Source of the DNA: Kiritimatiellia bacterium
Lineage (GTDB): Bacteria > Verrucomicrobiota > Kiritimatiellia > RFP12 > UBA1067
Direction: 5' to 3'
NCBI GenBank assembly: GCA_017542055.1
Contig: JAFXXW010000007.1
Coordinates: 1 to 60,996, forward strand
Length of the DNA: 60,996 nucleotides
The notes beneath the pieces are model-generated. The model saw nothing but the letters and a program-made list of their open reading frames with translations, was not told the DNA's origin and made no database searches. The translations under genes and the position numbers were made by a program. Shown here piece by piece: positions 1 to 60,401 of this stretch (position 1 is its first letter; every line of letters begins with the position of its first letter).

Positions 1-285
1 CTCGATTCTGCAAGGTGCCATAACCCTCGGCCCCAAACCCATATCCAAAAAGAAATCCAACCTCGAAAGTGTCCGAATTCTGACGAACAACAATCAGCGC
101 AACTCAAACAAAAGTGTCTTTTCTACTTGACGAACTGGGCTTCCCCACCCTCCATTGGCCATTGGTACTGGTATTGGATATTTCCACATTTCCACATTAA
201 AGCAAAGTCTGAAGGAAGCCTCCAGTGACAATGCAGTCATTCCCGGTTGGATACGTCTCAGCTGGAGCTGAGCCTTCAGACAGCC

Positions 286-380
286 GATATTATATCATAT
301 TTCCACCCCGCTCGTCAAGCGGAAAGTGCAAAAACTCCCCAACTCCAAAACTCCCCCGAACGAAAGCAACTCCCCGCCCC
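286..380 (-). promoter_or_regulatory. Conserved promoter module, copy A: minus-strand TTGACG-18nt-TGATATAAT promoter plus ~60 bp conserved upstream tract, firing leftward into AT-rich DNA
   Basis: Reverse strand reads TTGACG (318-313), 18-nt spacer, TGATATAAT (297-289). 319-380 is near-identical to 36201-36260 and related to 58421-58476 (repeated GGAGTTT tracts). Confidence 0.6.
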
Positions 381-411
381 ATTTTGCTATTTGCCGGGCG
401 GAGATTAGCCC

Positions 412-441
412 TTGACAAGGGCGGGAGATTTATGGTATAAT
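412..441 (+). promoter_or_regulatory. Promoter of the lactate permease gene (TTGACA-18nt-TGGTATAAT)
   Basis: TTGACA 412-417, 18-nt spacer, TG at 433-434, TATAAT 436-441. ATG 442 abuts the -10 box. ATG 448 is the 7th nt downstream, the expected transcription start position. Confidence 0.65.
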
Positions 442-2882: not shown

Positions 2883-4302
2883 GGTAGCGAATCGGCTCCT
2901 TGCCGGCGCGGATGCGTCGATAGGTTTTGGTTTTGACGTCGTAATAGCAGCACTCGACTTCCGGCAGCGCGGGGGCGCCGTCCGCCACGAAGTACCCCTT
3001 CCATTCCCCGGGTTGCCAAGCAAAGGCGGCGCCCGGCGGGAGGTAGGAGTCGGGGACGTAGACCGTTTGCGTCGTCGGGGAGAAGAGTCGGCAAGTGACG
3101 GTGATCACGTCGTTGGTGCCCACGTCGAGCGAGTCGGGGAAAGTTTTGAGCGTCAGGTCTTGACCCAGAATGCCGGAGAAGTCGGCCGGTTGCGAGTCTG
3201 GGTCGAGCGGCGACGCCTTGACGGCGATGGGGGCGGTACGGACGGGGAACGCCTGTATGCTAGTGAACGAGCTGTAAAAGCCGCCCCGACGCGTCTCTTG
3301 GGACGTCTCGACCCGGACGGTAACGTCAAAGGCCAGCGCGGGATTGTCCACCGGCGCCAGGTAGCGGGCGGGCAAGCGGTAGCGATTTTTGCCGGCCGGC
3401 TGCAAGTCGCCCAGCGACAGCGCGAAAGCGTTGTCGGGCTCGACGGACGAAATCGACACGGTACCGGACGCTTGCGTCTCCAAAGCAAAGAGGAAGTCGA
3501 ATTCCTCGCCCACTTTGATCTCCGGCTTGGAAAGCGACACCGTGATCAGCGCCACGGCCGCGAAATGCTTGATGGTTTTGCCGAGCGCGAGCATGACCAC
3601 GACAAAGGCTAGAAGCCACCCGGCCACCACCTGGAGCTGGGTGACAAGCGGCATTTTGAGGAGCGGACGCAGCACCACGCGCCAAGCGGGCAGTTCCGCG
3701 TAAGGATTGCCGAGCAGCCGGGCGCGCGCGGCGATCATGGCCGACTCGATGACGGGGTCCTGACCGTAGCGCCAGGCGAGCGAGTTAAGGCGCTCGAGCG
3801 CTTCGGCGGGCTGGCCGGAATGGAGGAGCCGGCGAATGGCGAACCAGTCGTCCGGCGTGCCGGAGGGTCCGTCTTCGGTCGGGATGGGCGGCATGGCGTC
3901 CCCCTCCTCGTCGAGCGCGATATCGACCGCTTGGCCGGGCCGGGCGTGGACGGGAATCTCATTGGTGCGAAAGACGAGATCGCCGCATCGGAAGTCGATG
4001 GGGGGAAACCTAAGGACGCCGGCTTTGAGGGGACGGATGCGCCAAGTCACCCGACGGGCGGTAGGGATGGTGTCCGTTTTGGCGGAGGCTTGGTCGAGTT
4101 TCCAGACGGTCGGGTCCAGGGCGGAAGCGAGCCTGGGCGGATGGAGAGAGGAAAAGTCCGCCTCGCCGATAAAGTCCATCGTCAGCGTCATGGGGTCGCC
4201 CACCGTCACGTTGTTGACGTCGAAAAACGCGCGGGCGGACAGCTTGGTGCCGGTTACGCCGGTCAGCTCGATGACCGCCATCAGTAGGGCCGCGAGCATC
4301 AT
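2875..4302 (-). CDS. Membrane-anchored protein with two beta-rich ectodomains, BatD-like (oxygen-tolerance family) by eye
   Basis: ORF 2875..4539 trimmed to MMLAALL at 4302 (ATGA overlap with the upstream stop). Has a hydrophobic N-terminus and a central TM segment (VVAGWLLAFVVVMLAL). The family assignment is a visual impression only. Confidence 0.4.
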   Translation of the reverse strand: MMLAALLMAVIELTGVTGTKLSARAFFDVNNVTVGDPMTLTMDFIGEADFSSLHPPRLASALDPTVWKLDQASAKTDTIPTARRVTWRIRPLKAGVLRFPPIDFRCGDLVFRTNEIPVHARPGQAVDIALDEEGDAMPPIPTEDGPSGTPDDWFAIRRLLHSGQPAEALERLNSLAWRYGQDPVIESAMIAARARLLGNPYAELPAWRVVLRPLLKMPLVTQLQVVAGWLLAFVVVMLALGKTIKHFAAVALITVSLSKPEIKVGEEFDFLFALETQASGTVSISSVEPDNAFALSLGDLQPAGKNRYRLPARYLAPVDNPALAFDVTVRVETSQETRRGGFYSSFTSIQAFPVRTAPIAVKASPLDPDSQPADFSGILGQDLTLKTFPDSLDVGTNDVITVTCRLFSPTTQTVYVPDSYLPPGAAFAWQPGEWKGYFVADGAPALPEVECCYYDVKTKTYRRIRAGKEPIRYHE

Positions 4303-5201
4303 CGTCCTTGCACCTTGTAGCGAATGGTGAGCGACTCGCGCGAGAAGCGGTCGATGAATTCTTTGGAAAGTCCGCGCACGATGCCGACCGAACGGGCCAC
4401 GTCCAGCGCGGCGCGGTCGGAAATCTTGTCGCCGCAGGACTTGGCGAGACGCACGTCCACCATTCGACCCGAAGTGGCGAATTTGACGGACAGGTACACC
4501 GTGCCGTCCGCGCCCACTTTGGGCATCATGGCGTCCCATTTTTCGTTGAGCGCCATCTGGATGAGACTCACCCCCAGCTGCAGGTCGCTTTCGGCCAGCT
4601 GGTTGGCGGTGCCGGGCCTGTAGCCGGCGTTGAGAAGCTTTTGGATTTCCGCCTGCGACATCGTCTGCTTGGCAGTGCGACCGTTGCCGGTGGGAACGTT
4701 TTTGACCTTGATCTTCACTTCCTTGGCGCTCTCGCGCATCCGCTTGAGCCGGTCCTCCGGGGATTCCTTGGGCTTCTCCGGCTTTTTCTCCTCCTTGGGG
4801 GGATCGGGCTTTTTGACCTCGGGCTTCTTTTCTTCCTTGGGCGGGTCGGGCTTTTTGACTTCCGGCTTGGGCTTTTCCTTGACGTACTCCACCGCCTCCT
4901 GCTTGGAGTCGATTTTGGGAATCTCCTCCACCTTGGGCGGGTCGGGCTTTTTGACTTCCGGCTTGGGCGGTTCGGGTTCGGGGTTGTCGAGGGGCGGGGG
5001 CTCGTTGTCCACGCCGTCCAGATTCTCGTTGACGATCACGGTGAGGTCGATGGGGATCACCGTCTCCTTGGGCTGGAACTTGAAGAGCGCAATCGACGCG
5101 AGAATGGTGAAGAAGACGATATGCACCAAAAGCGAAACGCCCAAGGTAAAGGGCGAAACCACTTCCGGCGGACGGCTATCGGCTTCGGGCGAGTACATCA
5201 T
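4299..5201 (-). CDS. tonB: TonB-like energy transducer with Pro/Lys/Glu-rich repeat spacer
   Basis: ORF 4299..5240, start set at MMYSPEAD (5201, ATGA overlap with the exbD stop). It has an N-terminal TM anchor, KPEVKKPDPPKEEKK repeats and a C-terminal TonB/TolA-type domain. Position is directly after exbB-exbD. Confidence 0.7.
   Translation of the reverse strand: MMYSPEADSRPPEVVSPFTLGVSLLVHIVFFTILASIALFKFQPKETVIPIDLTVIVNENLDGVDNEPPPLDNPEPEPPKPEVKKPDPPKVEEIPKIDSKQEAVEYVKEKPKPEVKKPDPPKEEKKPEVKKPDPPKEEKKPEKPKESPEDRLKRMRESAKEVKIKVKNVPTGNGRTAKQTMSQAEIQKLLNAGYRPGTANQLAESDLQLGVSLIQMALNEKWDAMMPKVGADGTVYLSVKFATSGRMVDVRLAKSCGDKISDRAALDVARSVGIVRGLSKEFIDRFSRESLTIRYKVQGR
4793..4966 (-). repeat. In-frame coding tandem repeats inside tonB-like gene
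   Basis: Three copies of ccttggg(g/c)g(g/a)tcgggctttttgac(c/t)tc(g/c)ggctt start at about 4793, 4835 and 4931. They encode the KKPDPPK(E/V)E units. Confidence 0.8.
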
Positions 5202-29334: not shown

Positions 29335-29363
29335 AGTATATCATATTCCGCCCGAAAAATCAA
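29335..29363 (-). promoter_or_regulatory. Promoter of the nifS-led gene array (TTGATT-17nt-TGATATACT)
   Basis: Reverse strand: TTGATT (29363-29358), TGATATACT (29343-29335). Only 9 nt separate the -10 box and the nifS ATG (29325). Confidence 0.6.
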
Positions 29364-29465
29364 GCAGAATCTTGGATTTTCGATTTATGATTTTCGATTT
29401 GCGATTGTCCAATCGACAATCCCTCAATACAATCCTAAATCTAAAATCGTAAATCCTAAATCACA

Positions 29466-29554
29466 GGGGGGGTGCCCACCCCCTCCACCTATCGCCCAAT
29501 AGGGCGTCACCCCCTCGCCCCGTATGGCGACACCCCGGGGGGTGCCCACCCCCC
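29466..29554. repeat. Two copies of palindromic GGGGGGTGCCCACCCCC box
   Basis: Copies at 29466-29483 and 29537-29554, 71 bp apart. GGGGGTG / CACCCCC arms. Confidence 0.8.
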
Positions 29555-29556
29555 TC

Positions 29557-29685
29557 GAAGGTCACCCCCTGCGCTCCGCGGAAGTCAACCCCCGCGCTCC
29601 GCGAAGGTCATACCCGTGCTCCGCAGAGGTCATGGGTCGGGCTCCGCAGAGGTCCAAACCAAGCTCCGCGAAGACCCTATCATAC
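29557..29685. repeat. Iteron-like array, family I (GCTCCGCRRAGGTCA, 5 clear units)
   Basis: GCTCCGC starts at 29573, 29596, 29618, 29641 and 29663 (22-23 bp period). Degenerate GTCACCCC-type units extend leftward to about 29500. Confidence 0.85.
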
Positions 29686-29914: not shown

Positions 29915-30484
29915 TTAGCCTTTTTTGAGAGAGGGGGGGTGTTGCGTGTGTACTGAGTGTATATTCACAAAAACGGCATTTTCGGCCCAGAGTTTGCGCA
30001 AGGCGGACACCATTCGCCCTTCGAAGGCGCTTGCTAGCTCTGGGGTGTCAAAGACAGTATCGGACGTTTTATCCAGAAAATGGAAATCTGTCAGAATCGA
30101 AATGAGCTCCCCATACACCTGAGCACAAATCGTTTTGGCGCGGGCGGCGGCATTAAGGAGGAACTTTTCCAGTGCCCGGCAGGCAATCTCGTGATCTTTG
30201 ATGACATTGATAAAGAGGTCGGTATCTTCCACGAGTTCGCCTGCTTCATCCTCGAAACTATAATCGAAAGCGGACGAAAACGCCAAACACTTGCAGATCC
30301 GGCCTAACGAAAGGCGCTCCAGCGGCTTCATATCGCCTTCGATCACGCATTGCGCAGCCTTGTCGAGCGCGACCAGGTCAGCTTGAATTTCCCCCGGAGA
30401 TCCAACTTTCCGGGTGTATTCCTCGCTCAATTCCCACTCGGCCGCTTCGTACGCCGACTCTTCCGTAAGTTTTTCGCTATTCAT
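29915..30484 (-). CDS. Hypothetical acidic protein (189 aa), no recognisable motif
   Basis: Only long ORF in this stretch. Lies 16 nt downstream of the helicase gene on the same strand. Codon usage is AT-richer than the core genes. Confidence 0.5.
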   Translation of the reverse strand: MNSEKLTEESAYEAAEWELSEEYTRKVGSPGEIQADLVALDKAAQCVIEGDMKPLERLSLGRICKCLAFSSAFDYSFEDEAGELVEDTDLFINVIKDHEIACRALEKFLLNAAARAKTICAQVYGELISILTDFHFLDKTSDTVFDTPELASAFEGRMVSALRKLWAENAVFVNIHSVHTQHPPSLKKG

Positions 30485-30500
30485 GATAAAATCGCTCCTT

Positions 30501-32276
30501 TCACGCCTTTTCGTTCAGGAAGTAAAGCTTGGCGCCTTGACGAAGACCCTGCTTTACGAGTATGAGCCCGCGCTCCACCAGCATCGCCTCGATATTGTCC
30601 ATTTCCTTTATGTCGGAAATATGGCTGCCTTTGGAGACCGTTCCACGTTTGAGTCCGGTGGGAACATTGTGCTCTTTGATATACTGGTAGACGCGCAAGA
30701 GCTTTTTCTCTTTTTCGTCCACGTTCATGAATTTCTTGGACTGCGCAATGACGCGCGCAATAATGGACTGACACAGTTCCCATGCCCAGTTTACGCCTTC
30801 GAGCGTGACGACTGGCTCTTTGGGATCTTGACTGATGGCGTAGAGGAGCGCCAGCTTGCCCGTCTGCTCGATCGCGCGACCCCAAATGGCCATGCCGGAA
30901 TCGTCGCCCTTGCGCGAGAGTTTGTCGATGAGCGCGTCCATCTGCTTGGCGAGCTCTTTGAAGCGCTCCTTGACGCCGGGACCGTCCTGCGCGAGTCGGC
31001 GTTGGGGCATTTCGCGATCGAAGAAGTCGGGGTTGAGTTCGATCGTCTTATGGAGGTCGTCCACGAGTTCCGGGGGAATCGTCACCGCCGCTTTGCGATC
31101 TTCGTTACGCTTCGGGAGTAGGCGCGTTTCGATGATGACGCAGCGATTCAAAAGTCCGCTCAAAATCGTCTTTTCGGTAATTTCCTCGTAAAAGAGCGTG
31201 GGCGTGGCGCAGCCGAAAATGGTGAGGGATGGATTCACGGCCACCGGGGCGCTCTCGCTTTTGCCGTAGCTCGATTTGGCGCGGGCGCGGGCGCGATGGA
31301 CCGTTTCGCTGGCGGAAAAGATTTGCAAAAGGTAGTTGTAGAACGCATCCCCGCCGCCCTGCCGCTTGTCGTTCATGACATGCAGGAGATTGCTGATTTC
31401 ATCGATCTGGAAGATGGCGCTGGGCGATTCGATGATAGCGTCTTCCGTGGCTTGGCCGGACGCAGGCTGCTCGTAGAACGACCGGGCGATTTGCAGTTTG
31501 TGTCCGATGGCCATATTGACCGAGCGCGGCTTTTGCTTGCCGAAGGTTGAGGGCGCCACCAGGATGATGTAGAGGTTGGGGTACGTGCCGCGCGAGTCGG
31601 TGTAGTTGCGTCCGGCGAGGTGCGAAAGGACAGCGAGTGCGCCCGCGAGCGCGATGGCGCGGTTGGGGTGGACGGCGCTTTCCAGGGTGACGTTCATGAT
31701 CCGGTCGATGAGACCCGGCACGTGCGTGAGCTTTTCGGGCGTGGAATAGAGGTCGGCGAGGTTTTCCTCTTCGTTGGACGCGAGCTCGCCTAAGAGCGAG
31801 GCCACGGCGCGATAGTCGGCGCGCAGGACATCCATTTCGCGCTGGAGCGCGTCCACCCGGAGACCGACGGTCAGCGAAGGATCCTGCATGATCCGGATGA
31901 TGTGCTCCTGGTAGTTGCCGAACATGTCGGCGAACTTGAGGAACGCCACGTCTTCGACGTCGATCTTTTCGGGCACGGAGTCCACGAGTCCGCTAAAGGT
32001 GCGCCGGGGGTCGTCGCAGTTGCGCGCGAGGATGTTCTGACGCGTTTCGCGCGCGTCGTCCGTCTCTTCGTCGCCCGCTTTGAGGATTTCGGGGAAGGCG
32101 TCGCGGAATACGGGATCGTTGAATTTTATGCTTTCGAGCCCCGCTCCCAAAACGATAGGAAACATGGCTTTCGGACGGAATACCATCGCAGCGATAACCC
32201 GTGTCTCGCGCCGCTGCCGCTCGAGCTTGATCTCGGCTTGCAGTTGTTCCTGCTTCTTCTGTTCTTCTTCAGTCAT
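30501..32276 (-). CDS. DUF3987-type (P4 alpha / VirE-like) replicative helicase with DnaB-N-like start and C-terminal winged-helix
   Basis: P-loop LVAPSTFGKQKP, Walker-B-like IFQIDEISNLL, then NPSLTIFGCATP and LLNRCVIIE segments resembling Pfam DUF3987. The N-terminus (ETRVIAAMVF...IKFNDPVFRDAF) resembles DnaB-N. Recognised by eye only. Confidence 0.55.
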   Translation of the reverse strand: MTEEEQKKQEQLQAEIKLERQRRETRVIAAMVFRPKAMFPIVLGAGLESIKFNDPVFRDAFPEILKAGDEETDDARETRQNILARNCDDPRRTFSGLVDSVPEKIDVEDVAFLKFADMFGNYQEHIIRIMQDPSLTVGLRVDALQREMDVLRADYRAVASLLGELASNEEENLADLYSTPEKLTHVPGLIDRIMNVTLESAVHPNRAIALAGALAVLSHLAGRNYTDSRGTYPNLYIILVAPSTFGKQKPRSVNMAIGHKLQIARSFYEQPASGQATEDAIIESPSAIFQIDEISNLLHVMNDKRQGGGDAFYNYLLQIFSASETVHRARARAKSSYGKSESAPVAVNPSLTIFGCATPTLFYEEITEKTILSGLLNRCVIIETRLLPKRNEDRKAAVTIPPELVDDLHKTIELNPDFFDREMPQRRLAQDGPGVKERFKELAKQMDALIDKLSRKGDDSGMAIWGRAIEQTGKLALLYAISQDPKEPVVTLEGVNWAWELCQSIIARVIAQSKKFMNVDEKEKKLLRVYQYIKEHNVPTGLKRGTVSKGSHISDIKEMDNIEAMLVERGLILVKQGLRQGAKLYFLNEKA

Positions 32277-32286
32277 AGCGCCTCAT

Positions 32287-32316
32287 ATTATACCATATTT
32301 TCCGCCCCTTTGTCAA
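32287..32316 (-). promoter_or_regulatory. Promoter of helicase gene (TTGACA-18nt-TGGTATAAT)
   Basis: Reverse strand: TTGACA (32316-32311), TGGTATAAT (32295-32287). 10 nt separate the -10 box and ATG 32276. Confidence 0.65.
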
Positions 32317-32318
32317 GT

Positions 32319-32535
32319 CCCAATTCCCCCGCGGGACATTTCCCAATTCCCCCGCAGGACTTTTGCCAAATCTCCCGCAGGACTTTCCCCAATTCCCCCG
32401 CAGGGCTTTCCCCAAGTCTCCGTGCAGACTCCAAAAAGTCTACACGCTCACTTTGCAAAGTGTGCACGTAAACTTTCAAAAGTCTACACGCTCACTTTAC
32501 CCAAGTCTCCGTGCAGACTTTACAAAGTCGAGACG
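32319..32535. repeat. Iteron-like array, family III (~10 contiguous 21-24-bp units, CCAAnTCTCCnnGCAGACTTT / AAAGTCTACACGCTCACTTT)
   Basis: Unit starts at 32319, 32342, 32366, 32388, 32411, 32432, 32455, 32477, 32499 and 32521. The same family recurs at 56978-57063. Confidence 0.85.
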
Positions 32536-32551
32536 ATAAATATGTTTGACT

Positions 32552-33901
32552 CTATGCCTTTTTCTGCATACTCATTGCCGAATAGCCGGCAAGTATAGCG
32601 AAGAACGGGATCATTATGTACCTATAACGAGTTGCCGTAATCGGGCCAATGACAGCTGCGAGCAGGATGATACTAAGCAAAGGACTCAATACCAACAAGT
32701 AGCCGCCAAACGACAAGTCTTTATATCGCCGTATGCTTTTAATTGCGCCAATCGCTACCAGCAAATATCCTCCCAGCAGAACCAGCCAACTTACTATCTG
32801 CACACCGGCACCAAGCGCCTTTTCGCCTAAGGTATATGGCGTTTCATATTGCACCTGGTAACCGCGCGCCACACCTGAACTCCACATGTTGTCAAGCGCG
32901 TCGCAAGTTCTTTCCAGTCCCAAGTATCGCAGCAATGCAACCGTTCCGGTTCCCGCATACAAACGCGGATGGGTTTTCGCCGTATATATCATATACTCCG
33001 GCAGGTGAGCCATTAATTGCTCCCGCGCATACTTACCCATAAGTTTCGACCGTTTCATCAAATCGTAATCGGCAATTTCACTTTCAAACCGTTCCATATC
33101 GGCGAGAACCGCTTCCTTCTCTCCGACCGGGAGCAGCTGCGCCAGCCTCCCCCAATTGCAACTGTAAAGATTGGTTCCGGAAATCGACGTAATTCCGGCT
33201 GTTCCAAATGCCAACTTGTTTCTGACCATCCAAGGACTCAAACCAATCGCCACTATCGCAACCCCGGCCACTACCATTGCCAGTTTCTTTTTCCAGGTTG
33301 ACCCATACACCAGTATCAGCGCCAAGATAAACGCCAATGCCAACGGGATGCAAATTGGCTTGGCATAAATTGCCACCACAAAGGAAATAAACGAGCCAAT
33401 CAAGCACTTGACGTTCCCGTTAACCCCTCTAAAATAAAGCCACAACGCCACTATCACCGAAGACACCGCCAACTGATCGGGCATGTGGAATAGCGAATAA
33501 ATAACCGTATCGGGCATAAACAGCAATACCGCCACGCCTAACGTAATTTGAGTATCTCCAAACGAAAACGGCTTGTTCCGGAGCAAAGCAATCATTGCTA
33601 TAATGCCTACTACCACCAACAGAATATTGATTAATCCCGCAATATGCTGAGTGGCCGGCACCGAACCGGTAGCCCAATAGACCGCTGCCATTATTCCTGG
33701 CCACAACGGCATGTCGTGGGCAGATGGCATCGGGGCGTCAGACTGCGCAGTCGAAAACACCCCATGATCGATTAGATTGATACTTTCCGTCAGATAGCGA
33801 AGCCCATCATCACCCTCCGGCGAAGATTGAAATGCCCATAGGCACAGTCGCAACCCCACCCCGGCAATTACAACCCACTTCAACCACTTACTTCCCTTCA
33901 T
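32552..33901 (-). CDS. Polytopic GT-C-type glycosyltransferase (ArnT/PMT/GT39-like)
   Basis: ORF 32552..34099 trimmed to [11 protein letters not shown] (33901). Roughly 11-12 TM segments with an early acidic loop ([11 protein letters not shown]), as in GT-C enzymes. Family call is by architecture only. Confidence 0.5.
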
Positions 33902-35411
33902 GATATTCTTCCTCGGTATTGACGTTCCAAACTGTGGATTTGGCGGTTTCACCCAAGAGCGCACGAACCGCCTCGATGCCGCAAAGCATGGAGTGGTCCA
34001 TATTGTTATAACGATGCTGCCCGTTCCGGCCAATGCAGTAGAGGTTACCGAAACCATCCAGCCAATCGCGCACCTTGCCGAATTCGGCATAGGAACCAAA
34101 ATAGGCGGGATAAGCCTTCTTCACCTTGATGCGAACGCTCTTGATGACCGGCTCGTCCGCTCCCAACACCCCGATATGACGCAACTCCTCAACCGCCATA
34201 TCGATGAATGGCTTGTCTTCCATCGTCCAGAACTTGTCCCCTTCCGTGCAGAAGTATTCAAGCCCCACCCAAACATGCTTGGTAACATCGTCCACCATAT
34301 AAGGCGACCAGTTGTTGAAGATTTGGATGCGACCCATCCTTACGTCACGCTCCTGCACGTAGATCCAAGTGTCGGGTACGATATTGTTGACCGTCTTGAA
34401 CTGCGTCTGATTCTTGATGGCCAACTTGTCGACCAACAGGCCCACCGTGATAAAGTCGCGATAAGGCAACTCTGACGCGATTTTGGCTACTTCGGCCGGT
34501 TTCTGGTCGAATGCGGCAACCAGGTCTTTGACCGGCATCGAGGAGAAGACCGCATCGCACTCGAGGCGCGTACCGTCTTTCAGCTTGACCGCCTTTACCT
34601 GTCCGTCTTTGGTCTCGATGCCGACCGCTTGCGCGTTCATCCGCACCTCTACGCCCATACCGCGCAATTTGGCCGCCATAGTCTCCCAAAGCTGTCCCGG
34701 GCCTTTCTTGGGATAGATAAACTCGTCAATCAGCGAGGTTTCCTTCTTGCCGCCTTTGGGGATGAAAATGTTGAGGATGGCCTTCCACAGCGAGAGACCC
34801 TTTACTCGCTGGGCACCCCACGAAGGATCGATTTTGGACGGATGGATGCCCCACAACTTCTCGGTATAGTCCTCGAAGAACATCGAGTAAAGCACCTTGC
34901 CAAAGCGATTGATATAAAAATCTTCCAACGAGTTTTCGGGCCGCTTCTTGATTGCGCTATAAAGATAACTCCAACCGGCTTTCCAGGTACGAATCAGCCC
35001 CATCGCGATAAAGGTGGCCGGCTTGATGGAAATGGGATAATCGAAGAAATGGCGCAGATAGTAGATGCGGCTCACGCGATGCCGGCGCAGCATCACTTCG
35101 TCGGTCTCTTCCGGATCGGGACCGCATGCTTCCACGTGACATTCGCGCCCGAGGATCGTGTCATCCTTGGCGGGCTTGCCTTGAATAGGCATCAGCTCGG
35201 CCCAAAGATCGTTCACCTCTTTCGACTTGGAGAAGAACCGATGCCCTCCAATATCGATGCGGCATCCCTCATAAACCGCAGTGCGCGAAATGCCGCCTAT
35301 TTCGGATGTCTCTTCAAGCACCACCACATCCCAATCCCGGGCCTTGCGCTTCAGTTCGTACGCGGCAGTAAGTCCCGCCGGACCCGCCCCGATAATAACG
35401 GCTCTTTTCAT
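33888..35411 (-). CDS. NAD(P)/FAD-dependent oxidoreductase (amine-oxidase / UDP-galactopyranose-mutase-like fold)
   Basis: N-terminal dinucleotide-binding motif [16 protein letters not shown]...[10 protein letters not shown]. 507 aa, soluble. Confidence 0.7.
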
Positions 35412-35857
35412 TTGTTGCCAACTCCTTTGTCATTGAAAATAAGCAGCTTGCGACCTAGATAATTCCACACCAGCACAGCACCGGTCACGAATACTTTGAC
35501 TATCATATAATTCCAATCGAGAATCTCAATGCCGAACCACATACCAATCTCGGTCAGCACCAGGCCTAAGAGCCCGATTATCCCAAAGACCAGAAACGCC
35601 CCGAAGCTACGCCCCTTCCCTTTATCCTTCGCCTGCGTGAACACAAACCACAGCGATAGCGCGTAATTGACCGCCAACCCGACGATAAAGCCAAACACGG
35701 TTGCGATATACACGCCCAGCGCCCAGTCCTTGAGAAAACACTCCTGCACCAACACCAACGTTCCAAAGTCCGCCAGAAAAGCGATCCCGCCCACGATAAC
35801 ATAACGCAAAAACTCACCTGCCAATATCTTGGCCGATGCAACTACGCCTGTCTTCAT
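35408..35857 (-). CDS. gtrA: GtrA-family membrane protein
   Basis: 149 aa with four TMs. N-terminal [17 protein letters not shown] motif typical of GtrA-like proteins. GGAG Shine-Dalgarno upstream. Confidence 0.7.
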
Positions 35858-36164
35858 TATCGTTTACGCTCTCCTTTCCGCCCCTCCACCCGCACGGAAA
35901 AGAAAAAGGGCGATTCTAGTCCGTGTCTCAAGTGAGGCTCTGGAATGCCCGATACGAAACACGTTAGAATACGCCCAGAGGACGCACTCCATACCATGTG
36001 TGACTCGTATCGTAGAAATTTTCCAGATTTCACTTGAGCCAACATAGCAGAATGCTAAGTTGAATTGTCGCGCTCCTGCACTCGCAGTGGCGACGCGTGC
36101 CGGGTAAAGACTCCCATCTTCCCGGCTATGACAAAGATCAAATCGGGGGATTTCCCCGTTAGAT
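35858..36164 (-). other. ~305-nt untranslated leader (possible cis-regulatory RNA) between promoter module B and gtrA
   Basis: No convincing ORF. The minus-strand transcript contains hairpins CGGGGAAAUCCCCCG, GCCGGG-16nt-CCCGGC and GUCGC..CUGC-GAGU-GCAG..GCGAC. Confidence 0.4.
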
Positions 36165-36165
36165 G

Positions 36166-36275
36166 CTAATATTATACCATATTCCCACCCTTTCCGTCAA
36201 GCGGAAAGTGCGAAAACTCCTAAACTCCAAAACTCCCCCGAGCGAAAGCAACTCCCCTCCCCGTCAAGCGGGAAA
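36166..36275 (-). promoter_or_regulatory. Conserved promoter module, copy B (TTGACG-18nt-TGGTATAAT plus upstream tract and second CCGTCAAGCGG box)
   Basis: Reverse strand: TTGACG (36200-36195), TGGTATAAT (36179-36171). CCGTCAAGCGG boxes at 36194-36204 and 36261-36271, 67 bp apart, as in copy C. Confidence 0.65.
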
Positions 36276-38991: not shown

Positions 38992-39068
38992 TGGTCGGAG
39001 CGGAGGGATTCGAACCCTCGACCTTTTGTACCCGAAACAAACGCGCTACCAGGCTGCGCTACGCTCCG
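38992..39068 (-). tRNA. tRNA-Pro (anticodon CGG)
   Basis: Reverse strand CGGAGCG-TA-GCGC-AGCCTGGTA-GCGC-G-TTTGT-TTCGGGT-ACAAA-AGGTC-GAGGG-TTCGAAT-CCCTC-CGCTCCG-ACCA. A full cloverleaf with encoded CCA. Confidence 0.9.
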
Positions 39069-42839: not shown

Positions 42840-42868
42840 ATTATATCATTTTTCCGGAAAAATTTCAA
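42840..42868 (-). promoter_or_regulatory. Promoter of ftsB-led array (TTGAAA-17nt-TGATATAAT), embedded in the 3' end of epmA
   Basis: Reverse strand: TTGAAA (42868-42863), TGATATAAT (42848-42840). The TGA is the epmA stop. 8 nt separate the -10 box and the ftsB ATG (42831). Confidence 0.6.
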
Positions 42869-56806: not shown

Positions 56807-56950
56807 AGTGACACATTTTTATCATTAAGGTGACACCTTTTAACCTTTACGGTGACACCTTTTGACCATTTTGGTGTCACCTTTTCTATCAAACGGTGTC
56901 ACCTTTTACCACTAAATGTGTCACCTTTCACATCAAAAGGTGACACCTTA
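56807..56950. repeat. Seven GGTGWCACC(TTTT) sites at exactly 22-bp spacing (family IV)
   Basis: Core starts at 56807, 56829, 56851, 56873, 56895, 56917 and 56939. The centre base is A,A,A,T,T,T,A. The first and sixth cores are slightly degenerate. Confidence 0.9.
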
Positions 56951-56977
56951 CGCATCATCTCCCCCAGCCAGGCAATA

Positions 56978-57063
56978 CAAAGTCTCCCCGCCGACAGTTC
57001 AAAGTCTACGCGCACGCTATTGAAAGTCTACACGCAAACTCTCCCAATTCTCCGTGCAGACTA
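56978..57063. repeat. Family III repeat array, second locus (4 units)
   Basis: Units: CAAAGTCTCCCCGCCGACAGTT, CAAAGTCTACGCGCACGCTATTG, AAAGTCTACACGCAAACTCT, CCCAATTCTCCGTGCAGACTA. Same orientation and family as 32319-32535. The last unit overlaps the acyltransferase stop codon. Confidence 0.8.
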
Positions 57064-58173
57064 CCTTCCGCCGAACAGGATGCCGGCAAATTTAGGCAAG
57101 TAGCGTCTGAGCAGCAAGGTGATTGCAATCGCCCCGCCAAAACTGCCGGCAAGGCTAATAAACGCCGCCCGGATTTCCGGCACCGGGATATGCTTGAACG
57201 CGATGCCAAAATAGACAAGGAGCACGATATGAATAAGAAAAACAGGAAACGAGCACGCAGTCAGCCACTTGGGCCATTCGCTTGTAGGCGTGATGCTCCA
57301 AACCAGGTATAGCAAGCACGGAACTGCGAACTTGCCAAGCGCGATTTCGCCGCGATATCCTTTATAGGCAAAAAACAACTTGAGAACCAGCAAGCCCAAT
57401 CCGGCTATTCCGCACCAAAGCGCAACCTTCCGCCCTTCGATTTGCGGCTTGAACTTCTGAATAAATACGCCAAGTGAAAAGTAGACTATGCCGCCAGCCG
57501 AATATCCCATCCGGAAGAACTCGCGCCAATTCTCGGTCGGCAAGTGATTCTGTACGAGCGAAAACGCAAATGCCAGCCCCAACCACCAATACTTGAATCG
57601 CCCCACTCCCCATTTGAACAACCAGCCAGTCAGCACGAACAAAAAGAGACATCGTACATACCACAAGGGGACGTGGCCAGGAAATTCGGTCAAGTCCAGT
57701 CCCCAAAAACCAAGCGGATTGTGAGCTACGCAAATGTTGGTTCCAAACGGACGATGCGCAATCAAATCGGCGATAATGCTCAATGGCATAGTAGCAATCA
57801 ATGTTATGGCCGACCACAACACAAACGGCACCACCAATGATTTTATGCGTTTCGTGGTTTCGCGTCGCCACCAATCCTGCTCCTCGAAGTGTTGCGCAAG
57901 GAAGAAACCGGAGACAACGAAAAAGAACGGCACGGCAATCCGCGCAATTCCCTCTTCCATAAATTCCTGCATAAACCAACCAAGCGACAGCGCTTGCTCG
58001 GCCGGCCATGAGATATGTATCACGACCACCAAGAACGCGCATATAAGACTCATGTTCTTGATCTTCTGACTGGACTCTGCGGAAATCTGCATCTGGCACC
58101 TGACATTCTCGCGCGTGGTTATCGCCCAACCGAATGCCGGGTGCATAAAAAGAGCGCATTTCAATCCATGCAC
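57061..58173 (-). CDS. Acyltransferase family 3 membrane protein (O-acetyltransferase of surface glycans type)
   Basis: About 10 TMs, early LICAFLVVVIHI segment and FFFVVSGFFL motif typical of acyltransferase_3. The start may instead be MQISAESS at 58092. AT-rich codon usage. Confidence 0.65.
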   Translation of the reverse strand: MHGLKCALFMHPAFGWAITTRENVRCQMQISAESSQKIKNMSLICAFLVVVIHISWPAEQALSLGWFMQEFMEEGIARIAVPFFFVVSGFFLAQHFEEQDWWRRETTKRIKSLVVPFVLWSAITLIATMPLSIIADLIAHRPFGTNICVAHNPLGFWGLDLTEFPGHVPLWYVRCLFLFVLTGWLFKWGVGRFKYWWLGLAFAFSLVQNHLPTENWREFFRMGYSAGGIVYFSLGVFIQKFKPQIEGRKVALWCGIAGLGLLVLKLFFAYKGYRGEIALGKFAVPCLLYLVWSITPTSEWPKWLTACSFPVFLIHIVLLVYFGIAFKHIPVPEIRAAFISLAGSFGGAIAITLLLRRYLPKFAGILFGGR

Positions 58174-58382
58174 TCCCTCGATGCCCTACCACAGGCCCAA
58201 TACGAATACACGAAGAAAAAATGCGCCCAGAATAGACGCATCTTCACTTGCACATCGCTCGTATTTTTGAAATAGTGGTAGTATTTCGAGGGAACGACTT
58301 GTTAGCGTTGATGCTAAAATCGATGTGATGCGGAAGAACGTGTCTACCCGCCCATCCTTAAGGATTTCTCCCCTAAGAACAC

Positions 58383-58495
58383 TGATATTATATCATATTT
58401 TGCCCCTCCCCGTCAAGCGGAAAGTGCGAAAAATCCCCGACTCCGAGACTCCCAACAGCGAAAGCAACTCCCCTCCCCGTCAAGCGGAAAGCGGG
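58383..58495 (-). promoter_or_regulatory. Conserved promoter module, copy C (TTGACG-18nt-TGATATAAT plus upstream tract and second CCGTCAAGCGG box)
   Basis: Reverse strand: TTGACG (58416-58411), TGATATAAT (58395-58387). CCGTCAAGCGG at 58410-58420 and 58477-58487 (67 bp apart). The intervening tract is related to copies A and B. Confidence 0.6.
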
Positions 58496-60312: not shown

Positions 60313-60321
60313 AACCTAAAT

Positions 60322-60351
60322 ATTATACCATATTCCGGCCCTTCCGGTCAA
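60322..60351 (-). promoter_or_regulatory. Promoter of nhaC-trmL (TTGACC-18nt-TGGTATAAT)
   Basis: Reverse strand: TTGACC (60351-60346), TGGTATAAT (60330-60322). 9 nt separate the -10 box and ATG 60312. It shares the CACTTTCCGCTTGAC upstream box with modules A-C. Confidence 0.65.
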
Positions 60352-60364
60352 GCGGAAAGTGCGG

Positions 60365-60401
60365 AAAAAAGGAAGAGGTCCGGGGGAAACCCGGGCCTCT
60401 T
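60365..60401 (-). terminator. Rho-independent terminator after gap
   Basis: Reverse strand AAGAGGCCCGGG-TTT-CCCCCGGACCTCTT followed by CCTTTTTT. Confidence 0.7.

Follow-up and report, generated by a model that had tools for sequence, protein, structure and literature searches.

The DNA considered here is a stretch of 60,996 nucleotides (hereafter the window) from the Kiritimatiellia bacterium assembly GCA_017542055.1 (contig JAFXXW010000007.1, positions 1 to 60,996). Its minus strand carries, in a row of about 3.9 kb, a promoter module, a long leader, gtrA, the genes for an FAD enzyme and a GT-C glycosyltransferase, and arrays of short repeats. This unit, cassette 1, is accessory and portable DNA: it is absent from a near-identical strain, is found at other loci elsewhere and shows an identity across species above that of the core DNA. 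As to how it travels, we lean, if only slightly, towards the view that it is one of a set of flexible surface-glycan cassettes, laterally exchanged by recombination at flanking core genes or at dispersed promoter and array repeats. A second cassette, at 56.8-58.5 kb, has the same layout from module to arrays. The parts of both, together with the further copies of the module, are as follows.

36166-36275, minus strand: promoter module copy 1, 110 bp, with a predicted start site near 36164
35858-36165, minus strand: leader 1, about 306 nt, as given by the end of the -10 (36171) and the ATG (35857); a small hairpin (36144-36158) lies close to the 5' end
35927-36038, minus strand: rod-like RNA stem-loop of leader 1, 112 nt, helices P0-P3
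35408-35857, minus strand: gene for a GtrA-family small membrane protein (149 aa; Pfam GtrA_DPMS_TM, PF04138, E 5e-18)
33888-35411, minus strand: gene for an FAD-dependent oxidoreductase (507 aa; Pfam FAD/amine-oxidase fold; NCBIfam uncharacterised PRK07208 group)
32552-33901, minus strand: gene for a membrane glycosyltransferase of GT-C fold (449 aa; Pfam PMT_2)
32408-32520, minus strand: B array, five units of 22-23 bp that alternate in orientation, plus a degenerate unit (32521-32535); it forms the cassette's 3' end
32317-32407, minus strand: A array, four 23-bp units built on a CCYGCGGG core, of which the last abuts the -35 (32311-32316) of the next promoter
58382-58495, minus strand: promoter module copy 2, heading cassette 2
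58175-58292, minus strand: rod-like RNA stem-loop of leader 2, 118 nt
57061-58146, minus strand: Acyl_transf_3 gene (O-acyltransferase family, from Pfam) of cassette 2
56978-57063, minus strand: B array of locus 2, four units, after the Acyl_transf_3 gene
56808-56957, minus strand: C array of locus 2, six to seven 22-bp GGTGACACC/GGTGTCACC units, forming a long hairpin together with the B array
284-392, minus strand: promoter module copy 3, back-to-back with the lctP promoter at 412-441 (plus strand)
60319-60368, minus strand: proximal half of the module, fourth copy, serving as the promoter of the housekeeping nhaC-spoU operon

This architecture had largely been recognised in a first, sequence-only reading of the window. 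That reading described a module of about 110 bp with a consensus promoter and two boxes 67 bp apart, a leader of about 305 nt and three AT-richer genes for glycan-modifying membrane functions. All of these are borne out by the coordinates and Pfam assignments above, and by a G+C content of 50-53 % in the cassette regions against 61-66 % in the surrounding DNA. The bracketing of a second gene by the same module and repeat family at 56978-58495, and the third module copy that had been placed at 286-380, likewise hold. Two features go beyond that description, namely the run of the A array into a perfect promoter at 32316-32287 and the fourth, half-length module copy at 60319-60368.

The evidence for portability comes from the comparison of strains for presence, absence and content that the same reading had proposed. 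Both cassettes are missing from a 158-kb contig of an African-cattle sample (L019/L040), which is 98-99 % identical to the window on both sides. At locus 1, identity to this contig is lost at 36169, at the module's -10, and comes back at 29381, immediately upstream of the iscS promoter. The intervening 6.8 kb gives way to 1.0 kb that comprises a short leader rich in CTAG, a four-helix-bundle gene in truncated form, a single B unit, a pair of A units and further arrays of 21-23 bp. Locus 2 differs as well, its segment 58508-56696 being replaced by about 90 bp with no module and one B-like unit. Behind the same MGMT gene that precedes cassette 1, the contents differ further: in one allele (L014) four A units come directly after the module, and then a promoter, a gene of 195 aa and one for an AAA_25 helicase, and another (L025) has the module, a complete four-helix-bundle gene and another module. 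The four-helix-bundle gene (TIGR02436 plus 4helix_suffix), for its part, has a CTAG-rich short leader with an 18-nt repeat and travels with the promoter module to different loci, two of its three copies (L025 1054-1704, L019 11014-11148, L012 2109-2270) being truncated.

The cassette also occurs in other settings. In a third context (L003), a short promoter is followed by leader 1, the gene trio, five B units and three A units, and the right flank corresponds to window 139-85. An exact 13-bp direct repeat, CCCAGTTCGTCAA, brackets this copy (64-76 and 3990-4002) and is present once in the window, downstream of module 3 at 127-139 (minus strand); it could represent a duplicated target or the core of a crossover. 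In buffalo samples (L046-L049), the whole segment 36278-32342, with module, leader, trio and B and A arrays, lies after an HD-domain gene and is 94.5 % identical to the window, against 88.5 % (L027) and 80.9 % (L055) for core DNA of the same samples; behind the buffalo MGMT gene stands a hairpin terminator, and a module is missing. A further locus (L045) shares the coding trio only, with 85.9 % identity over window 35864-32573; there the trio is part of a large polysaccharide locus and has its own short-leader promoter. Finally, the DegT-lctP locus of the buffalo (sister) species, which matches the first 4 kb of the window, has an Acyl_transf_3 gene preceded by a short promoter and a leader of 330 nt, and the product of this gene shares 73 % protein identity with the locus-2 enzyme. 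Module copy 3 accordingly marks a third cassette site, since the matching buffalo-species locus (L055) holds an acyltransferase cassette. Taken together, the cassette-free strain, the displaced unit with its high identity, the L003 context and the sister-species acyltransferase cassette bear out the earlier suggestion that these units are exchangeable and horizontally acquired. Behind the sister-species acyltransferase gene (L055 5050-5690) we also observed repeat trains of about 11-nt period (CGTTCGGAA, CAGTA-type), bracketed by a direct repeat of about 50 nt.

No match to the cassette DNA was found in plasmid collections. Among phage sequences the only match was a homologue of the FAD enzyme gene on an unverified 'bacteriophage' contig from human faeces (L053, MT835743.1, 12041-12546), with 66 % nucleotide identity over only part of that gene and neighbouring open reading frames (ORFs) unlike the trio. 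The ruminant-gut origin of these sequences is suggested by sample labels only.

Promoter module and lineage promoters

In copy 1 of the module, two exact CCGCTTGACGG boxes, a proximal one at 36194-36204 and a distal one at 36261-36271, are spaced by 67 bp and enclose GGAGTTTT-type T-tract repeats that are UP-like; the promoter itself reads TTGACG-18-TATAAT with a TG extension, the -35 lying at 36195-36200 and the extended -10 at 36171-36176. The three copies at 284-392, 36166-36274 and 58382-58490 are 80-83 % identical over 109 nt, far above chance, and TGGTATAAT occurs four times in the window where 0.02 occurrences are expected. The 11-mer box alone, with at most one mismatch, is not significantly enriched in the window (7 against 3.0 expected). 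The distal box is missing in module 3 and in the L013 copies.

The module is not private to the cassettes: near-identical promoters make up a family across the lineage, and the module is a member of it. Specifically, the pattern TTGnn-N10-14-WWATGRTATAMT has 10 sites in the 61-kb window and 31 across 11 related loci, those of the window lying before lctP, iscS, the DUF3987 gene, gtrA, tRNA-Pro, a 96-aa gene, the L25 gene, the acyltransferase gene and nhaC, in addition to module 3. The GCACTTTCCGCTTGA extension 5' of the -35 and the T-tract part of the module are also found before ACP-like, lipoprotein, toxin-antitoxin, secreted-protein and four-helix-bundle genes. When 11 module or promoter copies with nine different downstream contents are aligned, similarity is gone 2-3 nt past TATAATAT. 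The idea that the conserved flanks are a dedicated signature of the cassettes is thus not supported, as parts of the module stand before unrelated genes, array families are many and the trio occurs without the flanks as well. That reading had itself named the occurrence of the module before unrelated core operons as an outcome that would speak against it; this is in part what is seen, since the core and the proximal half of the module precede nhaC-spoU, ACP-like, toxin-antitoxin and other genes.

In many genes of the lineage, including lctP, iscS, the DUF3987 gene, the 96-aa gene and nhaC, the start codon lies 8-12 nt past the -10, and leaderless mRNAs therefore seem to be common. Leaders of 200-330 nt are the exception and mark the glycan cassettes. 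The promoters of the window with a start codon close to the -10 are these:

412-441, plus strand
29335-29363, minus strand
32287-32316, minus strand
42840-42868, minus strand
60322-60351, minus strand

The promoter repeats, or the variable DNA behind them, fragment metagenome-assembled genomes. Assemblies from several samples break inside promoter repeats. In particular, contig ends fall in promoter modules or about 280 nt past module 3 at window 1-6, at the ends of L018, L021, L022, L024 and L026 and at the starts of L032-L034, and every assembly examined breaks about 280 nt downstream of module 3. A scan of metagenomes with the module pattern returned five matches, three of them true relatives (L012-L014); the other two are unrelated, L010 being the L005 sequence again and L011 being unlike the module. 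L005 itself, from a Hydrogenedentales metagenome-assembled genome, was the only match in a scan of genome contigs, and it has none of the internal repeats and looks like chance.

Rod-like leader RNA and repeat arrays

The rod-like stem-loop found in three independent leaders is new and previously undescribed. In leaders 1 and 2 and in that of L055 it has one and the same architecture, with helix P0 at the base, then P1 and P2, each set off by an internal loop from the helix before it, and the hairpin P3 at the apex, within a size range of 112-121 nt. Its folding z-scores are -7.7 for leader 1, -5.7 for leader 2 and -8.5 for L055, and none of 300 shuffles of each sequence folds as well. A covariance model built from leaders 1 and 2 only recovered the L055 element with 46.5 bits and an E value of 4e-10; over about 390 kb of related loci, the model returned nothing beyond the three cassette types. 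A scripted comparison of the helices of the three leaders shows that all pairs of P0-P2 are canonical, with compensatory two-sided changes at 16 of the 22 shared positions. Rfam 15, applied to the whole window at gathering threshold, returned tRNA-Pro only, and its permissive mode yielded nothing but noise on leader 1 (E above 6). The rod is thus a concrete candidate for a new structured RNA, with strong covariation, ahead of gtrA-type and acyltransferase genes. It probably controls mRNA stability, processing, or read-through and translation, and the candidate roles are RNase III processing or stability, a regulator-binding site, and control of read-through or translation. In the fold of the full-length leader 1, the ribosome-binding site is paired with an upstream U-rich tract, a feature whose conservation in the other leaders is not clear. 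A 62-codon ORF (window 35857-36045, minus strand), which is kept in L046, overlaps the rod of leader 1.

At the opposite end of the cassettes stand the repeat arrays. The sequence-only reading had counted about 10 contiguous repeats of 21-24 bp immediately after the last stop codon of cassette 1. An array is indeed present there, with nine clear units of 22-23 bp (32317-32520) and one degenerate unit, the first lying about 30 nt past the stop codon. Over 18 loci, the tandem-repeat periods peak sharply at 22, followed by 23 and 21. Units consist of a palindromic GC-rich core between A and T tracts, often AAAGT...ACTTT, and each array has a core of its own, such as CCYGCGGG, GGTGWCACC, TCCGCGGA, GTACTAGTAC, GTCCGGAC or TGCTATAGCA, among others. 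In the 61 kb and the related loci covered, the B family was seen at the two window loci and, as remnants, in L019 and L040. In both comparisons with the island-free strains, the arrays are part of the variable DNA.

Transcribed into RNA, these arrays would form extensive structures. The sense strand of the B plus A block folds with -100 kcal/mol (z -7.0) and that of the B plus C block of locus 2 with -112 kcal/mol (z -8.7), and the B and C blocks may act as the 3' terminator, insulator or mRNA stabiliser of the cassette. The A array may belong to the control region of the replication-module promoter that it adjoins.

The antisense strands fold as well, with -66 kcal/mol (z -6.1) and -72 kcal/mol (z -5.9), respectively, that is, better than shuffled sequence, and the symmetry of the arrays therefore exists at the DNA level. 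This observation bears on an explanation that we consider unlikely, namely that boxes and arrays are native regulatory DNA: operator or iteron arrays that make the cassettes one regulon, with repeats that serve regulation and neither exchange nor RNA structure. The two identical module boxes 67 bp apart agree with it, and so do the palindromic cores between A and T tracts, the period of two helical turns typical of iterons and operators, and the contact between the A array and the -35 of the replication-module promoter, which recurs in three contexts. Against such a role, module 3 and the L013 copies lack the distal box; the same arrays persist when the adjacent replication protein is swapped; and the many unrelated array families would call for many cognate proteins. 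An iteron-type replication origin has direct repeats of 17-22 bp to which the initiator encoded beside them binds; the location of the A array next to the replication-module promoter agrees with this, but the arrays stay the same where the replication genes differ (window versus L014/L046; L035 versus L043). Moreover, presence/absence polymorphism, low G+C content and inter-species transfer are not those of simply native DNA, and G-U pairs favour the transcribed strand of the arrays, the sense RNA being 34-40 kcal/mol more stable than the antisense, an asymmetry that is suggestive of selection at the RNA level in the window arrays and mixed in other loci.

Replication modules and the route of exchange

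Downstream of cassette 1, and still within the variable region, lies a replication module whose features are listed here.

32287-32316, minus strand: replication-module promoter, 12/12 hexamer matches, TG extension
30501-32276, minus strand: gene for a DUF3987 protein (591 aa; phrog_3022, E 3e-61; about 25 % identity to phage primase/helicase proteins)
29915-30484, minus strand: partner gene (189 aa), no family match, its pairing with the DUF3987 gene conserved in L035
29701-29872, minus strand: AT-rich stretch with six GTATTGAA/TTCAATAC repeats, resembling a replication origin
29465-29654, minus strand: D array of four 23-bp units at 29556-29654, together with E hairpins, whose block is 89 % identical to the end of the L046 island
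29335-29381, minus strand: iscS promoter, at the right edge of the variable region, where homology to the cassette-free strain resumes (29381)

As the ATG lies 10 nt after the -10, a leaderless DUF3987 mRNA is implied. Comparable modules recur elsewhere: L035 has a homologous DUF3987 pair (31 % identity) behind GT2-GT8 genes, L043 has a lambda-O-like initiator in the same place with identical arrays downstream, and L046 has a 195-aa gene and an AAA_25 helicase gene as in L014. In L039 the island is absent and homology resumes at the next promoter. The islands of the window and of L046 have the distal E hairpins in common (89 %), with unrelated replication genes. PADLOC found no defence-family match among the replication-module proteins; a gene pair at L046 11511-12691 (165 and 228 aa), just before tRNA-Tyr, matches the candidate defence system PDC-M21 A/B and is AbiEii/MarR-like.

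In the mechanism that we favour, a strong promoter of sigma-70 type, embedded in a dispersed 110-bp repeat, would drive the cassette. The GtrA-family protein, the PRK07208-type flavoenzyme and the GT-C transferase would together perform a periplasmic modification of the polyprenyl-phosphate type, and the nine 22-23-bp units would give the transcript its long hairpins. Cassettes would be gained, lost, replaced and relocated via recombination in core genes or in the promoter and array repeats, the adjacent replication module being itself swappable. As a consequence of recombination in conserved flanking DNA, exchange would tend to run from promoter to promoter. The breakpoints observed coincide with predicted transcription start sites, with the upstream border of the following promoter or with arrays, positions which suggest that dispersed repeats and flanking core genes supply the homology for promoter-to-promoter replacement. 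The outcome would be a strain-specific variation of surface glycans, with phage or host selection as the presumed driver.

Several points weigh against this reading. The left junction of locus 2 lies in the last codons of spoU with no repeat visible, and recombination between promoter repeats thus cannot explain every event. The 13-bp direct repeat at the L003 cassette hints at a site-specific or transposition-like insertion. Replication modules stand beside glycan genes in three independent islands, which speaks for a mobile-element mechanism over plain homologous recombination. The arrays fold better than shuffled sequence on either strand, which leaves room for a role at the DNA level, for instance in protein binding or as a cruciform. 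What is said of promoter strength, of the start site, of termination at the arrays and of the leader's role is deduced from sequence; the counts of modules, promoters and arrays cover the 61-kb window and the related loci only; and the treatment of L046, L027 and L055 as one organism is based on their co-occurrence in the same two samples.

A mobile-element mechanism is, in fact, a serious rival, even if we judge it rather improbable in the form in which it can be put most sharply. In that form, the 6.8-kb segment 36278-29381 would be an integrated, replication-competent satellite or plasmid-like element with the glycan genes as its cargo. Module, arrays, AT-rich iteron region and E hairpins would be its own regulatory, origin and attachment sequences, and it would move by excision and integration with a recombinase provided in trans. 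Directly downstream of the glycan genes there are, as this would predict, a phage-type helicase/primase gene, a partner gene and an AT-rich region of 8-10-bp iterons, and analogous replication modules follow glycan genes in L046/L014, L035 and L043. The islands of the window and of L046 share both ends, the module and the E hairpins, at different chromosomal sites, and the direct repeat of the L003 copy would fit as well. Nevertheless, none of the islands examined contains a gene for an integrase, an excisionase, a relaxase or a structural protein, and no recombinase domain appears in the gene tables, which cover all islands and about 50 kb of the window (main gap at about 12.9-20.5 kb). The replication modules are swapped independently of cassette and arrays; cassette 2 and the L055 cassette have none; and in the polysaccharide locus that holds the trio none was identified, the genes upstream of that locus (L045) showing no similarity to replication modules. 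Relatives are also lacking in the viral collections, which were scanned with the DUF3987 protein and the promoter pattern, and in plasmid collections. Nor does the locus look like a tRNA-targeted island, as tRNA-Pro (38992-39068) lies about 2.7 kb upstream with core genes between and no integrase is present.

A bolder proposal can also be put forward, which we regard as speculative and unlikely to hold in full. According to it, the uncultured rumen lineage would harbour an undescribed, integrase-less modular mobile element made of promoter-capped glycan cassettes and interchangeable replication modules. The hairpin arrays and the 13-bp core CCCAGTTCGTCAA would be sites of a novel recombination or replication-coupled transfer, and the rod leader would represent a new class of cis-regulatory RNA for surface-glycan-modifying membrane enzymes.

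Known elements and meaning of the cassettes

Among the closest known counterparts are the phage-borne O-antigen cassettes of Shigella and Salmonella, which comprise gtrA-gtrB-gtr(type) and oac, GtrB being a GT2 bactoprenol glucosyltransferase. Like them, the cassettes described here are small, low in G+C and variable among strains, encode GtrA with a GT-C protein or a lone Acyl_transf_3 enzyme, alter a surface glycan and lie beside mobile-element genes. They differ in that a PRK07208-type flavoenzyme takes the middle place and GtrB (GT2) is absent. There is also no prophage, attachment site or integrase, and hence no int-att location of a temperate phage; viral relatives are likewise lacking, and only a module of helicase/primase type is adjacent. 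Their own strong promoter, as predicted, their long structured leader and their 3' repeat array set them further apart.

An unusually long 5' leader with a conserved element before surface-polysaccharide genes is, in turn, reminiscent of the leader control of polysaccharide operons, as exerted by RfaH on ops-JUMPstart, by UpxY in Bacteroides, by LoaP and by the EAR element. The element found here, however, is a rod-like hairpin of 112-121 nt without an Rfam match, and no NusG paralogue was seen nearby.

With REP, BIME and REPIN sequences, for which roles in termination, mRNA stabilisation and recombination have been proposed, the arrays share short palindromic units, alternating clusters, a location at gene 3' ends, lineage specificity and the existence of several families. 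In particular, their cores are palindromic, and the B and C arrays consist of units in alternating orientation that give long hairpins. In contrast to REP and BIME, the units are spacer-less, keep a strict 22-23-bp period, have a core of their own in each array and, in the comparisons made, lie in variable DNA. A REP family has tens to hundreds of copies across a genome and a cognate RAYT transposase; no RAYT was seen in the window and related loci.

Integron cassettes offer another parallel, as they consist of one or more genes with a hairpin-forming 3' site, are exchangeable and lie downstream of a conserved promoter region. A site-specific system of that sort, with the arrays as attC sites and the module as both common promoter and attachment site, would account for the strongly hairpin-forming block that ends each cassette, for tandem modules with a single gene between them and for those breakpoints that fall in arrays. 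We nonetheless consider it very improbable. Most breakpoints lie at promoters, and every cassette brings its own promoter and leader, where an integron would have a promoterless ORF followed by a single attC of 57-141 bp with R''/L''-L'/R' cores. The 3' sites are tandem 22-23-bp units of several unrelated families and not single imperfect palindromes with conserved attC/attI cores. No integron integrase (IntI) and no tyrosine or serine recombinase was found in the window or island gene tables, and Rfam gave no match, though Rfam is no test for attC.

The promoter module has a precedent in the putative mobile promoters, repeats of at least 50-100 nt and at least 80 % identity whose reuse before unrelated genes is seen inside single genomes as well as across taxa (Matus-Garcia, Nijveen and van Passel 2012; PMC3575422). 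The definition asks for at least 50 nt, at least 80 % identity and non-homologous genes downstream; the 11 aligned copies with their nine downstream contents, and the 80-83 % identity of the three window copies over 109 nt, fall within it. What differs here is that the repeat can be resolved into UP-like T-tracts, a -35, a conserved spacer and an extended -10, that it stops at the predicted transcription start site and that it coincides with the breakpoints of accessory cassettes.

As regards the arrays, a further relative is BrickBuilt, a minisatellite-type MITE (transposable element of the miniature inverted-repeat class) in Porphyromonas gingivalis, which consists of a single family of 23-nt repeats with leader and tail segments and IS5-like terminal inverted repeats (PMC4596501). 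Spacer-less tandem repeats of 22-23 nt, a strictly intergenic location, variable copy number and an association with promoter activity are common to both. The arrays described here, however, form many families in an unrelated host lineage, and no terminal inverted repeats or leader and tail segments were identified around them. The B units (32408-32520) contain (G)AGACTTTnnAAA, which is loosely similar to GAGACCTTTGCA, the terminal repeat of IS5 type in the BrickBuilt MITE and in ISNme1, a likeness that could be due to chance. Repeats of a different nature occur inside a coding sequence of the window: a TonB-like gene (4776-4973) has an internal 42-bp tandem repeat that encodes a Pro/Glu/Lys-rich linker.

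The statement of the sequence-only reading that no described element has this layout is fair for the combination, while each component has known analogues, and the combination of a reused promoter, a rod leader and hairpin arrays is a variant of kinds already known.

For the biology of this group, the promoters of the lineage emerge as near-identical repeats of 50-110 bp. Their coincidence with recombination and with assembly breaks explains why metagenome assemblies are fragmented at the most variable loci. The same parts, module, leader and array, could serve as a ready-made expression unit for genetics in the group. More generally, it appears that the surface glycans of uncultured rumen bacteria are diversified from one strain to the next by means of compact, self-promoted cassettes that cross species, and such a strain-level diversification is relevant to the dynamics between phages and hosts and to the tracking of strains in gut ecosystems.

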